IMG/VR virus record: IMGVR_UViG_3300045988_003155
Location: 1 to 5,661 of that record
Length of the DNA: 5,661 bases
Direction: 5' to 3' (one strand)
Source of the DNA: a virus
Each line of letters opens with the position of its first letter. Position 1 is the first letter of the stretch. The notes under the pieces are model-generated. The model made no database searches. It had not been told where the DNA came from and was given only the letters and a program-made list of their open reading frames with translations. Position numbers and translations under genes: made by a program. Shown one piece after another: positions 885 to 5,661 of this stretch.

Positions 885-1341
885 TTTCAGAGAAACCGCA
901 ATAGCAAAGCCCACTGAGGCCGGAGAGACCATCAGACGGACGTATCTTTGGGAAATCAACGAGAAGGGCGAAAAGGTGCTGACGCTTGACCAGACCATCG
1001 ACCAGCAGGCGGAAATCGATAGCTATCTGGAAGAAACCAAGCTGGAAAACATCATCCGTCGGGCATCCATCGACCCTGACCTTGCGGCCAGACTGGTGCC
1101 GGACATGGGCAATGGAATCCAGGACGCAACCGAGATGCCGAGAAATCTGATGGAGCTTCAGAACATCATGCTGCGAGCGGAGCAAATCTGGGATGAAATC
1201 CCGAAGGAAATCAAGCTCAAGTTTAACAATGACGTCGATAAATTCGTAACAAGCTTCGGAACTATCGACTGGGCAAAAAATCTGGGAATTTATCAGGAAG
1301 AGCCGCCTAAAGAGCCTAAAAAGGAGGAAGCCACTGAATGA
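862..1341 (+). CDS. VP3: Internal scaffolding protein VP3 (159 aa from ATG 862; the tracked ORF begins at TTG 835)
   Basis: AAGGAG (846-851) lies 10 nt upstream of the ATG at 862, whereas 835 is a TTG with no RBS. The C-terminal half IWDEIPKEIKLKFNNDVDKFVTSF (1186-1257) matches the conserved xxLPxxIRxxFxNDPxxF region of gokushovirus/chlamydiaphage scaffold proteins. The stop overlaps the VP1 start (ATGA, 1338-1341). Confidence 0.75.
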   Translation: MAYRSVSNFRETAIAKPTEAGETIRRTYLWEINEKGEKVLTLDQTIDQQAEIDSYLEETKLENIIRRASIDPDLAARLVPDMGNGIQDATEMPRNLMELQNIMLRAEQIWDEIPKEIKLKFNNDVDKFVTSFGTIDWAKNLGIYQEEPPKEPKKEEATE

Positions 1342-3050
1342 ACAGAAACAAAGACGCAGGGTTTAACCAGGTGCCGCGACTGGACATTACGCGAAGTCGC
1401 TTCAAACGGCGGCAAGATGTCAAATTAACCATGAACGCAGGCCAGCTCATTCCGTTCTATGTGGACGAAGTGCTCCCGGGCGATACCTTCAGCATCGACC
1501 AAGCAGCAATTATCCGTATGACGACTCCTATCTTCCCAGTTATGGACAACTGCCACATGGATATTTACTACTTCAACGTACCTTGCCGCATCATCTGGGA
1601 GCATTTCAAACGGTTTATGGGCGAAAACGACACCGGGCCGTGGGCGCAGACTCAGGAATATACCATTCCACAGGTCAAGGTAACCGGCACAACTGAAAAA
1701 CCGGCACCCTATGAGGGAAGCATCATGGACTACATGGGCATTCCTACCAAGGTGAGCAAAGGAACTGATAGTACATTCAGCGTTAATGCACTGCCGTTCA
1801 GAGCCTACGCTATGATTTGGCAAGAGTGGTTCCGCGACCAGAACGTAGACAATCCGGCAATCAACAGCACCGCAGACGCAACCGTAGACTATACGGATGA
1901 TGAGACCAAAGGCATGGACGCAGCAAAACCGGATTTGGAATATATTCTCAAGAACGCATACACCGGCGGCAGACCATTGCCAGTCAATAAGTATCATGAC
2001 TATTTCACCAGCGCACTGCCAAATCCGCAGAAAGGACCAACAGTCAGATTACCAATAACCGGAAGCGCACCTCTAGGAATGTACAACGCCAGTACCGGAA
2101 ATGTAACCATTAACAGCCAAAAAATGAAAGAAATTCTGGTATCGGCAGACATGACAACGAATAACGGCGTATTCAGAGCCTCCGACTGGGACGTAGGATC
2201 TGGACCTACAGCAGACAAAGGCCTTGGGGTCGGATACGAGTCAAGCGGAACGTATAGAGGCGTAACCTTGGGAGCTGACTTATCAAATGTAACAGCCGCA
2301 ACCATCAATCAGCTGCGGCAGGCATTCCAGGTACAAAAATATTACGAACAGCTGGCACGAGGCGGCAGCCGTTACCGCGAGATGATTTATTCGCTGTTCC
2401 ACACCAAAATCAGCGATAAAACGGTACAAATCCCGGAATATCTGGGCGGAACGCGCATTACCATCAACATGAGTCAGGTCATTCAGACTAGCGGAACGAC
2501 GCAGGAAAGTCCTCAGGGCAATACAGCAGCAATAAGTGTTACGCCGTACAATGGCAGCATGTTCACGAAGAGTTTCGAAGAGCACGGCTATGTTATCGGC
2601 GTGTGCTGCATCCGGCATGACCATACCTACCAGCAGGGCTTGGAGCGCATGTGGAGTCGCAAAACTAATCTAGACTTTTACTATCCTGTCTTCGCAAATC
2701 TGGGCGAGCAGGCCATTCTGAAGAAGGAGCTGTATCTCACTGGTACGGAAACTGATGAACAGGCCTTTGGTTATCAGGAAGCTTGGGCAGAGTACCGAAT
2801 GAAACCAAACCGCATCAGCGGCAAGTTCCGTTCGAATGCAACGGGGACGTTGGACAGCTGGCACTACGGCGACAACTACAAAGAGACTCCGAGCCTGAGC
2901 CAGGCATGGATGAAGGAGGGAGATTCCGAGATTCAGAGAACCCTGGCCGTAGACAACGAGCCTCAGTTTATCATGGATACCGTCATCGACAATACGTCTG
3001 TAAGACCTATGCCTATGTACAGCATTCCGGGACTCGTAGACCATCACTAA
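1338..3050 (+). CDS. VP1: Major capsid protein VP1 (phiX174 F homologue), 570 aa
   Basis: AAGGAGG (1321-1327) lies 10 nt upstream of the ATG. The N-terminal region ...RSRFKRRQDVKLTMNAGQLIPFYVDEVLPGDTF...TPIFPVMDN (core at 1446-1490) is the hallmark conserved block of Microviridae F/VP1 proteins. Its length is typical of Gokushovirinae, and it is the largest ORF. Confidence 0.93.
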   Translation: MNRNKDAGFNQVPRLDITRSRFKRRQDVKLTMNAGQLIPFYVDEVLPGDTFSIDQAAIIRMTTPIFPVMDNCHMDIYYFNVPCRIIWEHFKRFMGENDTGPWAQTQEYTIPQVKVTGTTEKPAPYEGSIMDYMGIPTKVSKGTDSTFSVNALPFRAYAMIWQEWFRDQNVDNPAINSTADATVDYTDDETKGMDAAKPDLEYILKNAYTGGRPLPVNKYHDYFTSALPNPQKGPTVRLPITGSAPLGMYNASTGNVTINSQKMKEILVSADMTTNNGVFRASDWDVGSGPTADKGLGVGYESSGTYRGVTLGADLSNVTAATINQLRQAFQVQKYYEQLARGGSRYREMIYSLFHTKISDKTVQIPEYLGGTRITINMSQVIQTSGTTQESPQGNTAAISVTPYNGSMFTKSFEEHGYVIGVCCIRHDHTYQQGLERMWSRKTNLDFYYPVFANLGEQAILKKELYLTGTETDEQAFGYQEAWAEYRMKPNRISGKFRSNATGTLDSWHYGDNYKETPSLSQAWMKEGDSEIQRTLAVDNEPQFIMDTVIDNTSVRPMPMYSIPGLVDHH

Positions 3051-3191: not shown

Positions 3192-3998
3192 ATGGCGTTA
3201 GCAGCAATCGGCAGCGCACTACTCGGAATCGGCAAACAACTACTCCCAACGATCGCCGGAGGACTCATAAACAAGTTCCTAGGCGGAAGCTTAATGGAAA
3301 GCAATGGAGGGAGCAGTCAGCACAACGAAAGTACGAGCCAAGGAGGCGGATACAGCAGCTCCGCCAGCGGCGTAAACCGAGAACAAAACCTGCAAGACTG
3401 GAACAGCATGCTAGGAGCAATCCAGGGAAACATGCAAAGCCAGCAAAAATTTAACCGTCGAAGCATGTTCGAACAGATGGGCTATAACACCATGGCAGCA
3501 ATCACTCAAGGTGTATATAACCAAATAAGCAACAACGCAGCAATGTCCTACAACAGCGCAGAAGCAGCCAAAAACAGAGCTTGGCAAGAGCAAATGAGCA
3601 ATACAGCTTATCAACGAGCTGTAGGAGACATGAGAAAAGCAGGCATCAACCCTATCTTAGCATACCAACAGGGCGGAGCAAGCACTCCGGGAGGCGCACA
3701 AGGCACTATCAGCGGGGCAAGCATGGGACTCGCAAGCAGCAGTGCGGCGAATGCAAGCGCTCTCGGAGTAAGCCAGAACCACAACAACACATGGAGTAAA
3801 AGCGAAAGCAACTGGTACAACGCGGCGCAAGCAGTTGGAGACGCTACAAGCTGGTCACACACAAGCGCAGACAAAGCGTTAAAAGCATTCGAAAATGTTC
3901 TGGGCCAGCTGGGAAACCTTACAAACGAAAATCCCAAAGGGAATTCAACAAAGGACAAAGACGGCTTCGGAGGAAGTAAAGGGGGCGAATTTAAATAA
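3192..3998 (+). CDS. VP2: DNA pilot / minor capsid protein VP2 (phiX174 H analogue), 268 aa
   Basis: It has a hydrophobic G/A/L-rich N-terminus, a Q/N/S/G/A-rich low-complexity body, and the conserved block MSNTAYQRAVGDMRKAGINPILAY (3594-3665) that I recognise from gokushovirus VP2 proteins. It sits directly after VP1. There is no adjacent SD. Confidence 0.8.
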   Translation: MALAAIGSALLGIGKQLLPTIAGGLINKFLGGSLMESNGGSSQHNESTSQGGGYSSSASGVNREQNLQDWNSMLGAIQGNMQSQQKFNRRSMFEQMGYNTMAAITQGVYNQISNNAAMSYNSAEAAKNRAWQEQMSNTAYQRAVGDMRKAGINPILAYQQGGASTPGGAQGTISGASMGLASSSAANASALGVSQNHNNTWSKSESNWYNAAQAVGDATSWSHTSADKALKAFENVLGQLGNLTNENPKGNSTKDKDGFGGSKGGEFK

Positions 3999-5017
3999 TG
4001 GGGTGTAACAAACCGTTAATCCGGTTTTATGTACCTCACGACAGGGAAGCGAGTGGGCGAGTGTACTCACTCGCTTCTTTCAACGAGATTCATAAGACCA
4101 AAATGAAGTATGAAGACCTGATGTACCGCAAAGACGTAATGATGATTCCATGTGGACAATGCACAGGATGCAAACTACGCAAACGGAAAGATTGGGCCAC
4201 GCGAATGGAGCTGGAAGCATACAGCCACGACAAGGAAAGCATCTGGTTCATCACACTGACCTATGATGACGATCATATACCAACACAGGACACGGAAACA
4301 GGGGAAATCTTCAAGGGAGGCGTGAACGTATGGAGAAACGCCTCGGAGCGTCCCAGAACGGTGCAAACTTTAAGCGTGGAGGATGTCCAGTTATTCATGA
4401 AAAGGCTTAGAAAGGCCGTTAGAGAGCCTATCAGGTACTTTCTAGCCGGAGAGTATGGAGACAACACATCAAGACCACACTATCACATGATACTATACGG
4501 GTGGTATCCGGACGACTTAAAGCCGATCCACAGACTGTCAAGATTTGGACACTACACGAGCGATAAGCTGGTCAAAGTCTGGGGAAAAGGCACAGTTGAT
4601 ATAGCTCAAGCAACGCCAGAAACGTATAACTATGTAGCTGGATATGTAACCAAGAAGCTGTACGGAAACGACAAAGACAAGTACAAGAAAATGGGACTCA
4701 TACCGCCATTTTGCGTAATGAGCCGAAAACCAGGACTCGGAGACGAATGGTTCCAAAAAAATCAAGAAAGGCTATGGCAACTTGGATACATCCAGCTGAC
4801 AAACGGCAAAAGAGCAGCCATTCCAGAATATTATTGGCGAAAGCTGGAAGCTGAAAATCCTGAAAAGGCATGGAGAATCAAGCAGTATCGACAAGGAAAA
4901 GCCATCGCATCCCTAATCGAAAGAAACATGGAAACTGACAAACGGTATGCCGAACAACTAGCCAATAAAGAAGCAATCATGAAGAAGAAGATGTCCAAAG
5001 CAAAGGGCGTTTTTTAG
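3998..5017 (+). CDS. VP4: Replication initiation protein VP4 (HUH rolling-circle endonuclease, phiX174 A homologue), 339 aa
   Basis: RCR motif I is FITLTYDD (4247-4270). The HUH motif is RPHYHMILYG (His-Tyr-His at 4478-4486, aa 161-163). The two-tyrosine motif III is YVAGYVTK (4631-4654, Tyr212/Tyr216), compare phiX174 A. An N-terminal Cys cluster CGQCTGC is also present (4151-4171). The start overlaps the VP2 stop (TAATG). Confidence 0.92.
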   Translation: MGCNKPLIRFYVPHDREASGRVYSLASFNEIHKTKMKYEDLMYRKDVMMIPCGQCTGCKLRKRKDWATRMELEAYSHDKESIWFITLTYDDDHIPTQDTETGEIFKGGVNVWRNASERPRTVQTLSVEDVQLFMKRLRKAVREPIRYFLAGEYGDNTSRPHYHMILYGWYPDDLKPIHRLSRFGHYTSDKLVKVWGKGTVDIAQATPETYNYVAGYVTKKLYGNDKDKYKKMGLIPPFCVMSRKPGLGDEWFQKNQERLWQLGYIQLTNGKRAAIPEYYWRKLEAENPEKAWRIKQYRQGKAIASLIERNMETDKRYAEQLANKEAIMKKKMSKAKGVF

Positions 5018-5028
5018 CTCTGGTGTCA

Positions 5029-5075
5029 CTCAGCCAAGTAACTATCAAGTATATATACTTGGCTGAGCGTTTTTT
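5029..5075 (+). terminator. Rho-independent terminator downstream of VP4
   Basis: A perfect 12-bp stem pairs CTCAGCCAAGTA (5029-5040) with TACTTGGCTGAG (5056-5067) across a 15-nt loop. CG+T6 follows (5070-5075) and a second T6 lies at 5078-5083. The element starts 12 nt after the TAG stop. Confidence 0.8.
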
Positions 5076-5087
5076 AGTTTTTTATCA

Positions 5088-5128
5088 GCGCGCGCGCACG
5101 CGCGCATAATTGCGCACGTACACGCACG
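5088..5128. repeat. Alternating purine-pyrimidine GC-rich tract (two blocks) with GCGCACG direct repeats
   Basis: 5088-5107 (GCGCGCGCGCACGCGCGCAT) is 20 nt of strict Pu-Py alternation. 5111-5128 (TGCGCACGTACACGCACG) is 18 nt of strict Py-Pu alternation. GCGCACG occurs at 5094-5100 and 5112-5118, and ACGCACG at 5122-5128. Possible hairpins are GCGCGC/GCGCGC around GCAC, and GCGCA(5102-5106)/TGCGC(5111-5115) around TAAT. Confidence 0.85.
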
Positions 5129-5132
5129 ATTT

Positions 5133-5171
5133 TTATTATATTATTATTTACTTGTTGTAGTCGTAGTAGTA
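5133..5171. repeat. Trinucleotide low-complexity blocks: TTA/TAT units (5133-5150) then GTN units (GTT GTA GTC GTA GTA GTA, 5154-5171)
   Basis: Direct reading of TTATTATATTATTATTTA followed by GTTGTAGTCGTAGTAGTA. Confidence 0.7.
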
Positions 5172-5176
5172 GAGGG

Positions 5177-5352
5177 TGTTGAAATGTTGAATACTATGAA
5201 TTTTTATCCGCAGAACGATATTTTCTGGTTAATTTTGATGTTGAAAGTTTTGTGGAAAACTTGTTGAATTGTTGAAAGTGTAGCAATATGCACAAAACCA
5301 TTTGTGCAACTTTTTGTGGAAAACCTGTTGAAAGTGTTGAAAGTGTTGAAAA
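5177..5352 (+). repeat. Iteron array: 8 same-orientation TGTTGAA copies, including a 3 x 9-bp tandem (TGTTGAAAG TGTTGAAAG TGTTGAAAA, 5326-5352)
   Basis: TGTTGAA starts at 5177, 5185, 5239, 5262, 5270, 5326, 5335 and 5344. The exact 9-mer TGTTGAAAG starts at 5239, 5270, 5326 and 5335. One-mismatch copies TGTGGAA start at 5251 and 5315. A longer unit TTTTGTGGAAAAC[T/C]TGTTGAA occurs at 5248-5268 and 5312-5332 (20/21 identical). Confidence 0.9.
5289..5308. other. Perfect 8-bp hairpin TGCACAAA-ACCA-TTTGTGCA between the two 21-nt iteron units
   Basis: 5289-5296 is the exact reverse complement of 5301-5308, with the 4-nt loop ACCA. Confidence 0.85.
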
Positions 5353-5391
5353 CGCAATTAAAGGCAGTTCGGCAGCTGGCCGGAAAGTCAC

Positions 5392-5447
5392 GTCATGCTC
5401 TTCGTACGGCGCACCGCGCCTAGCGCATGACCTTTTAGATTAAAAGG
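5392..5447. other. Cluster of nested/adjacent hairpins, GC-rich then AT-rich
   Basis: GTCATGC (5392-5398) pairs with GCATGAC (5425-5431) and encloses GGCGC (5408-5412)/GCGCC (5416-5420), loop ACC. This is followed by CCTTTTA (5431-5437)/TAAAAGG (5441-5447), loop GAT. Confidence 0.7.
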
Positions 5448-5522
5448 AAAATGTTACACGGTGCTTGAATGGACAAACCTTAAGAACGGAGATGCAAAAC
5501 AATTCGATTGGGGAAAATGCAC

Positions 5523-5553
5523 AAAAGAGGCTTGACGAGCCTCTTTTTTTTTT
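5523..5553 (+). terminator. Rho-independent terminator (10-bp stem plus T10), potentially bidirectional
   Basis: AAAAGAGGCT (5523-5532) pairs perfectly with AGCCTCTTTT (5538-5547) across the loop TGACG, and the T run extends to 5553 (10 T). The A4 on the 5' side gives the same architecture on the opposite strand. Confidence 0.75.
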
Positions 5554-5560
5554 ATATACT
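5532..5560 (+). promoter_or_regulatory. Sigma70-type promoter: -35 TTGACG (5532-5537), 17-nt spacer, -10 TATACT (5555-5560; duplicated at 13-18)
   Basis: Each hexamer matches its consensus (TTGACA, TATAAT) at 5 of 6 positions, with the optimal 17-nt spacing. The predicted start is near 5567 (=25), giving a leader of about 180 nt before the first ATG ORF at 207. This is sequence inspection only. Confidence 0.5.
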
Positions 5561-5661
5561 AAAGGCAGTCAAACAGCACAGAAGTGCATTCAACAAACCC
5601 TATTTTTACAAAAATAACTTTACGAAAGAGGTGAACCACTCTGACCATCCAAGAAATCAAA
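5543..5661. repeat. Terminal direct repeat, copy B (identical to 1-119)
   Basis: Same alignment as copy A. The repeat runs to the last base of the window, as expected when a circle is linearised with a k-mer-sized overlap. Confidence 0.95.

Follow-up and report, generated by a model that had tools for sequence, protein, structure and literature searches.

The basal unwinding system (BUS), described for DnaA-box 6/7 of Bacillus subtilis incC, is composed of DnaA boxes, a GC-rich gap of about 4 nt, DnaA-trios and an AT tract, with some 12–13 nt separating the trios from the distal box (PMC8287927, PMC6669920, PMC10721633). The trios obey the rule NAN with the consensus 3′-GAT-5′, at least three of them lying on one strand, and the arrangement is written as 3′-box-box-gap-(GAT)n-5′ in Table S1 of Pelliciari 2021, where the B. 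subtilis BUS reads AATAGGTGT TTAGGTGT CCGG GATGATAATGAAGATGAT (GATGAT...). For Ruminococcus albus 7, the same table and DoriC give an origin 3′-AAAAGTTGT CCA AAAAGTTGT, that is, TGTTGAAAA-ACC-TGTTGAAAA. DnaA boxes are also used on single-stranded DNA: at the A-site of the ABC primosome, a box within an ssDNA hairpin drives helicase loading and priming (Masai and Arai, as related in PMC6127211).

Among rolling-circle replicons, the 30-bp origin of phiX174 (CAACTTG^ATATTAATAAC...) lies inside its rep gene, gene A, and is without DnaA boxes; the origins of CRESS-DNA viruses and rolling-circle plasmids have direct repeats and a hairpin adjoining an HUH rep gene. Few hosts are known for gokushoviruses, which count as some of the most common ssDNA viruses in the mammalian gut. 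To our knowledge neither their (+) nor their (−) origin has been defined experimentally, nor do we know of a DnaA requirement in phiX174-type replication. Full-text searches of the literature returned no description of DnaA boxes, DnaA-trios or iterons in Microviridae or gokushoviruses. Here we analysed a stretch of 5,661 nt from such a phage (the window, from here on), in which positions 5129–5352, judged by sequence, reproduce in compact form the chromosomal origin of a Firmicute, Ruminococcus-like in layout and in part of its sequence.

Anatomy of the module downstream of VP4

Bases 1–119 of the window recur as 5543–5661, which indicates a circular gokushovirus genome of 5,542 nt. Its + strand carries every gene of the phage: a VP5-like gene (648–884), the VP3 scaffold (835–1341), the VP1 capsid (1338–3050), VP2 (3192–3998) and VP4/Rep (3998–5017). 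The phage proteins match the Pfam families Phage_F, Chlamy_scaf, Phage_ORF5 and REP_ORF2-G2P, and the closest database records are faecal gokushoviruses from humans, pigs and monkeys. Since VP4 keeps an HYH motif at residues 161–163 (HUH) and YVAGY at 214–218 (YxxxY), rolling-circle replication appears to be retained. A 17-bp hairpin followed by a T-run at 5029–5075, directly after the VP4 stop and kept in close relatives, is likely the VP4 terminator. The repeats and hairpin considered below occupy the long non-coding stretch 3′ of VP4.

In this stretch the earlier note had described two 21-nt units, TTTTGTGGAAAAC[T/C]TGTTGAA, at 5248–5268 and 5312–5332. Both were recovered, 20/21 identical and 64 nt apart, and each proved to consist of two adjacent 9-mers (TGTGGAAAA and the next TGTTGAA) of a longer array. 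The repeats are far beyond chance: the window has 11 copies of the heptamer TGTTGAA, where shuffles give 1.0 ± 0.95, and 16 copies of TGTKGAWW, where 2.0 ± 1.3 are expected. Ten + strand copies of TGTKGAWW (starts 5177 and 5185; 5239, 5251, 5262 and 5270; 5315, 5326, 5335 and 5344) all fall inside 5177–5351, with none elsewhere on the + strand. Together with the related TGTGCAACT, which starts at 5303, they form an array of eleven boxes, co-oriented on the + strand, across 5177–5352.

The array opens with an 8-nt box, TGTTGAAA, and a 9-nt box, TGTTGAATA (5177–5193), co-oriented and with starts 8 nt apart; relatives, from which 107 unique elements were collected, have TGTGGAAAA or AGTGGAAAA at the first of them. 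A variable spacer follows (5194–5238), which in some relatives holds a long hairpin; here it contains the word TTATCCGCA (5204–5212), in the opposite orientation and one mismatch away from TTATCCACA, which is not conserved. Box cluster I (5239–5278; TGTTGAAAG, TGTGGAAAA, TGTTGAATT and TGTTGAAAG in the order of the starts above) contains the first 21-nt unit, and box cluster II (5315–5352; TGTGGAAAA and then three copies of TGTTGAAA(G/A) with a 9-nt period) contains the second. Between the clusters, on the same strand, lies the box-like TGTGCAACT (5303–5311), which doubles as the 3′ arm of a hairpin. The sole box-like words on the other strand near the module are inverted copies of TGTTGAAT within AAGTGCATTCAACAAA and AAGGGAATTCAACAAA, at 40–55 (equal to 5582–5597) and 3937–3952. 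Past the last box, 5353–5445 holds nested GC-rich hairpins (for instance GTCATGC...GCATGAC), the first of which, AAAGGCAGTNCGGC..., is common to many relatives and is replaced by an unrelated sequence, GCGCACAGCGCT..., in one subgroup. A role of TTGAAA as a promoter element was considered and rejected: the array holds no promoter-like pair, the sole good one being at 5532–5560. That pair (TTGACG-17-TATACT), upstream of an ORF at 207–434, is overlapped by a terminator-like hairpin with T10 at 5523–5560.

Alignment of the relatives uncovered a second conserved block at 5146–5193, upstream of the interval that the earlier note had covered. Its description was in this respect incomplete, the functional unit reaching upstream to about 5129. 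There, a pure A/T tract of 22 nt (5129–5150, 0% GC) takes the position of an AT-rich unwinding element distal to the trios; the corresponding A/T tract of relatives ends in TATTAAC. Next comes the conserved, phage-specific word (A/T)ACTTGTTG (5149–5157), which is AACTTGTTG or TACTTGTTG in 97 of the 107 unique elements. Directly 3′ of it on the + strand are the DnaA-trio-like repeats TAG TCG TAG TAG TAG (5158–5172), 5′-TAG-3′ being the same as 3′-GAT-5′. The three box-proximal TAG are almost invariant among the 107 relatives, and 33/107 extend the run to (TAG)5 or longer. A G-rich 4-nt gap, AGGG (5173–5176; GGAG in most relatives), separates the trios from the first box. Immediately upstream of the A/T tract, at 5088–5128, we also observed an alternating purine–pyrimidine GC tract (CGCGCGCACGCGCGCATAATTGCGCACGTACACGCACG); most, not all, relatives have a comparable tract there, often a near-palindrome around GAAA or GTAA.

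Read 5′ to 3′, the B. subtilis BUS becomes (TAG)n-4 nt-8-nt box-9-nt box, which is the order and spacing found at 5158–5193, and its boxes TGTGGATT and TGTGGATAA share the geometry of the pair at 5177–5193. The correspondence covers the parts themselves, their order, their orientation on the trio strand, the 4-nt gap, and the co-oriented 8-nt proximal and 9-nt distal boxes. AGGG and the two boxes give a spacer of 12 nt, as in B. subtilis and S. aureus; three or more of the trios at 5158–5172, mostly TAG, have A in the centre; and the A/T-rich region (5129–5150) lies beyond them. Unlike the BUS, the phage module resides in a 5.5-kb ssDNA rolling-circle phage and away from dnaA, its boxes are variants of TGTTGAAA, and it has its own ACTTGTTG between the AT tract and the trios.

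The boxes deserve a closer look. Most of them (TGTTGAAAG) differ from TGTGGATAA at 3/9 positions, a poor fit to the E. coli consensus. The two trio-proximal boxes of the window likewise have three mismatches each to the standard TGTGGATAA and so exceed the 2-mismatch limit of the published finder when it is run with the standard motif; the Ruminococcus origin has the same box. Compared with the Ruminococcus-origin motif TGTTGAAAA, which may or may not be that of the phage host, they have 1–2 mismatches. Among relatives, a proximal box with at most two mismatches to TGTGGATAA is seen in 42/107, the boxes at 5177, 5251 and 5315 alternate between TGTTGAAAA and TGTGGA(A/T)AA, and the box at 5251 is the perfect consensus TGTGGATAA in 34/107. 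The array is most likely made of the box variant TGTKGAAAA of Ruminococcus type, that is, of candidate DnaA boxes.

As to the hairpin, the earlier note had placed TGCACAAA-ACCA-TTTGTGCA at 5289–5308, with CAACTT at 5307–5312 and AACTTG at 5258–5263; all three are there, and the stem is complementary at 8/8 positions. In relatives with this hairpin (type A) the stem is invariant and the loop varies (ACCA, AACC, AGTC, ACAA, TCCT and AGTA). Another subgroup has a hairpin a few bases upstream, TTCGTCA-AAA-TGACGAA (type B), unrelated to type A in stem sequence, and a third (type C) has no stable hairpin. The type A 3′ arm, the box-like TGTGCAAC, is conserved even without its pairing partner. Only these two alternative stems were found among the relatives and, since each is invariant within its type, there are no compensatory changes to count. 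Because the types differ and the 3′ arm is kept unpaired, structure at this site is favoured without being indispensable, nor does the loop qualify as a conserved nick site. The hairpin is an accessory structural element between box clusters.

Conservation of the module and its independence from Rep

In several gokushoviruses that are otherwise unalignable with the window, megablast matched only 5238–5355, at 87–90%. A more sensitive search placed the element in 43 phage records, all of them gut gokushoviruses, and a core 18-mer matches more than 116 IMG/VR contigs, mostly of 5–6 kb. Across the 107 unique copies the core (5238–5352) is 75–97% identical to the window at the nucleotide level; in most of the same set VP4 is 34–56% and VP1 40–55% identical. 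In one genome whose VP4 is 41% identical (L107), the best-matching segment of all is 5139–5353, at 92.6%, and its breakpoints coincide with the ends of the module. Similarity stops at these ends (about 5139 and 5353), and exchange of the module is separate from that of VP4. The near-identity, which extends to the bases between the boxes, may in part reflect recent horizontal spread rather than selection.

Presence was assessed on loci picked by VP4 similarity alone and having at least 500 nt of downstream sequence. Every locus in this sample with VP4 identity of at least 84% carries both array and hairpin. At 55% VP4 identity, one locus shows the array and trios without the type A hairpin; at 30%, one (L044) has no module. 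Absence of hairpin and repeats from close relatives, named in the earlier note as fatal to its reading, is therefore not what we see. Over the wider set of relatives the array is kept, and the hairpin takes two forms or is missing. Beyond this group, Chp2, phiMH2K, SpV4 and a gokushovirus prophage of E. coli have no module, so gokushovirus replication in general does not need one. The prophage, in the E. coli C41 chromosome (1754–2021 and 6309–6586 of locus L166), lies between fimA and hipA, is flanked by dif-like ATATACATTATGCGCA repeats and has no DnaA-box/trio module.

These data bear on the proposal of the earlier note that the repeats are iterons bound by VP4 and that the hairpin with its CAACTT flank is the rolling-circle nick site, in the style of CRESS-DNA and plasmid HUH origins. 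As in those origins, direct repeats and a repeat-flanked hairpin adjoin an HUH rep gene: the module lies 130–340 nt downstream of VP4 in every relative with enough downstream sequence, VP4 has the HUH and YxxxY motifs, and AACTTG at 5258 is kept in 83/107. The origin-like layout beside Rep thus stands; its reading as Rep iterons with a nicked hairpin is not supported. Iterons specific to a cognate Rep would be expected to change with it, and the repeats do not follow Rep: they stay the same over VP4 proteins of 34–97% identity (34–56% in most copies), and the module swaps independently of VP4. They also match the boxes of bacterial origins. In the relatives no conserved nick motif was found in the hairpin loop, and since the stem comes in two versions or is missing and the loop varies freely, the loop is unlikely to hold the nick site. 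CAACTT itself is kept in only 42/107, with CAACAT in 48.

Comparison with phiX174 leads to the same place. The two phages share a virus family, an HUH/two-tyrosine Rep and the short word ACTTG. The module is intergenic, not inside the rep gene, and rich in repeats, and a search of the window for the phiX-type word CAACTTGATA/CAACTTG^ATA with up to two mismatches returned 2 matches against 5.3 expected, none of them in the module. A (+) origin of the phiX174 type was rejected on these grounds and on the patchy retention of CAACTT. All in all, we consider VP4-bound iterons with a hairpin nick site an unlikely account of the module.

The match to dnaA-linked origins of Ruminococcus

Metagenome contigs were scanned for TGTTGAAAANNNTGTTGAAAA, which gave 80 loci, three of which adjoin dnaA (about 0.05 expected by position alone, by our estimate). 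One of the three, on a 10.3-kb contig (L242), carries dnaA at 8755–10116 and dnaN at 7202–8362, both confirmed by Pfam. Its DnaA sequence is recorded as Ruminococcus sp./R. bicirculans and is found in the context rnpA-rpmH-dnaA-dnaN on contigs of 1–2.8 Mb. The six copies of TGTTGAA that the contig has on the strand read here all lie within the dnaA–dnaN spacer.

The spacer starts AT-rich, ...AATATTAAAT, and continues TAGTATTAGTAGTAG AGTG TGTTGAAA TGGTTGAAAAG, so that the gap AGTG is followed by the box pair TGTTGAAA-TGGTTGAAAA; after TGGTTGAAAAG come, in order, TGTTGAAT, TGTTGAAAC, CATTGTGCAAAGTTTT and TGTTGAAAACTATGTTGAAAATGTTGAAAT. The phage module has the parts of this origin in the same order. 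Shared with the Ruminococcus origins (L242 and R. albus 7) are TAG-NNN-TAG-TAG-TAG followed by AG(T/G)G and TGTTGAAAT, a TGTGCAA(A/C) word, and three to four terminal TGTTGAAA boxes at 9–12 nt spacing, all collinear: TGTGCAAAG of the L242 origin aligns with phage TGTGCAACT, and the TGTTGAAAACTATGTTGAAAATGTTGAAAT after it compares with phage box cluster II, as does TGTTGAAAA-ACC-TGTTGAAAA of R. albus. A local alignment of phage and L242 origin scored 76, against 35 ± 5.6 (maximum 57) in shuffles, and the composite (TAG)3-gap-box motif, searched in about 1 Mb of unrelated contigs, gave just two matches, the Ruminococcus origin and a single gokushovirus. The two differ in length (about 390 bp for the Ruminococcus origin and about 215 bp for the phage module), their interior spacers are unrelated, and the Ruminococcus origin has neither the TGCACAAA/TTTGTGCA hairpin nor (A/T)ACTTGTTG, in place of which it reads AAATTAGTAT.

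The variant box is also met beside the consensus: in a higher-GC organism (L171), TGTTGAAAA-GTC-TGTTGAAAA-TGTGGATAA lies just past dnaA, so that variant and consensus box are members of a single tandem array. Three further metagenome contigs have long tandem runs of words of the TGTTGAAAA type, up to 19 copies in 800 nt (L170, L216 and L168), with no dnaA in the stretch examined. The sole match to the module in bacterial assemblies is a contig binned into a Prevotella MAG (CALBJK010000280.1, 5,840 nt), itself a complete-looking gokushovirus contig with the module and probably a binning artefact. Prevotella was rejected as a host: the other contigs of this MAG gave no motif match, and the strong Shine-Dalgarno sites of the phage fit Bacteroidota poorly.

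Given that the module mirrors a Ruminococcus origin in layout and, in part, in sequence, the repeats most likely bind host DnaA and not Rep.

Possible roles and implications

DnaA could act on the single-stranded form instead. The hairpin of the packaged + strand would then duplex TGTGCAACT, and DnaA would assemble a primosome on it in the style of the ABC A-site, making the module a minus-strand origin. Precedent exists in the A-site hairpins as related in the source cited above, and the phage resembles them in having a box-like 9-mer duplexed by a hairpin on a single-stranded phage genome. Moreover, the fold pairs TGTGCA within the stem and puts ACT into an outer one, and the trios lie on the packaged strand. 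However, TGTGCAACT is paired in the type A fold and unpaired in types B and C, the type B hairpin being without a box and type C relatives without a hairpin. Unlike at the A-site, the hairpin is thus not universal and most boxes are unpaired: 10 of the 11 lack a complementary sequence to pair with, so they would stay single-stranded in virion DNA. The geometry of boxes, gap and trios, for its part, makes sense only on duplex DNA. A priming site of this kind is improbable, and weaker as an explanation than opening of the duplex by DnaA.

Binding by another protein, be it a small phage protein or a host regulator such as Spo0A, could make the array a control element of transcription or timing, since it is bounded by the VP4 terminator and the promoter that follows, and its heptamer agrees at 6/7 positions with the Spo0A 0A box, TGTCGAA. 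A Spo0A box was rejected on account of position 4: across the 107 elements, none of the 11 boxes has C there, all having T or G. Any such regulator also leaves unexplained the trios, the gap of 4 nt, the AT tract and the collinearity with dnaA–dnaN; we regard it as quite unlikely. Finally, that the hairpin and the following T-run are an intrinsic terminator and the repeats incidental is very improbable: a consensus scan does rate 5289–5308 plus ACTTTTTG as terminator-like, but VP4 already has its strong terminator at 5029–5075, just 3 of the pairs in the stem are GC, 48/107 relatives have a broken T-run (CAACATTTTG), what comes after the type B hairpin is AAATCATTG and no T-run, the reading fails for types B and C, and Rfam over 5000–5661 gave no family match, just a sub-threshold chance match.

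We return to host DnaA: that it occupies the boxes and opens up the replicative form as a duplex is, in our view, rather probable. From the anatomy, we infer that DnaA-ATP of the host would bind the co-oriented boxes on the duplex, oligomerise from those at 5177–5193 onto the TAG trios of the + strand, and melt the adjacent A/T tract. The opening might serve host helicase loading and amplification of the replicative form or, as a second option, might offer the single-stranded + strand to the HUH endonuclease VP4. For the latter, ACTTGTTG at 5149–5157 could be the nick region: it coincides with the border of the predicted bubble and has ACTTG in common with the word at which phiX is cleaved, a likeness that is only a lead.

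More tentatively, the phage may be a rolling-circle ssDNA phage of Ruminococcus-like hosts with a working miniature oriC, used for helicase loading or for a hybrid DnaA/Rep handover at ACTTGTTG, a combined proposal that we hold as possible rather than probable. If helicase loading is the purpose, the replicative form would replicate like a DnaA-dependent minichromosome; if VP4 takes over at ACTTGTTG, DnaA and Rep would share one hybrid origin. For an HUH replicon such as a rolling-circle phage, opening of the origin through DnaA boxes and DnaA-trios would be a new route, and the module is a short DNA substrate open to testing. Its box variant and its unwinding core match origins of Ruminococcus, so that it also provides a sequence-based host prediction; if true, a widespread clade of gokushoviruses of mammalian guts would have Ruminococcus-like bacteria as its hosts.
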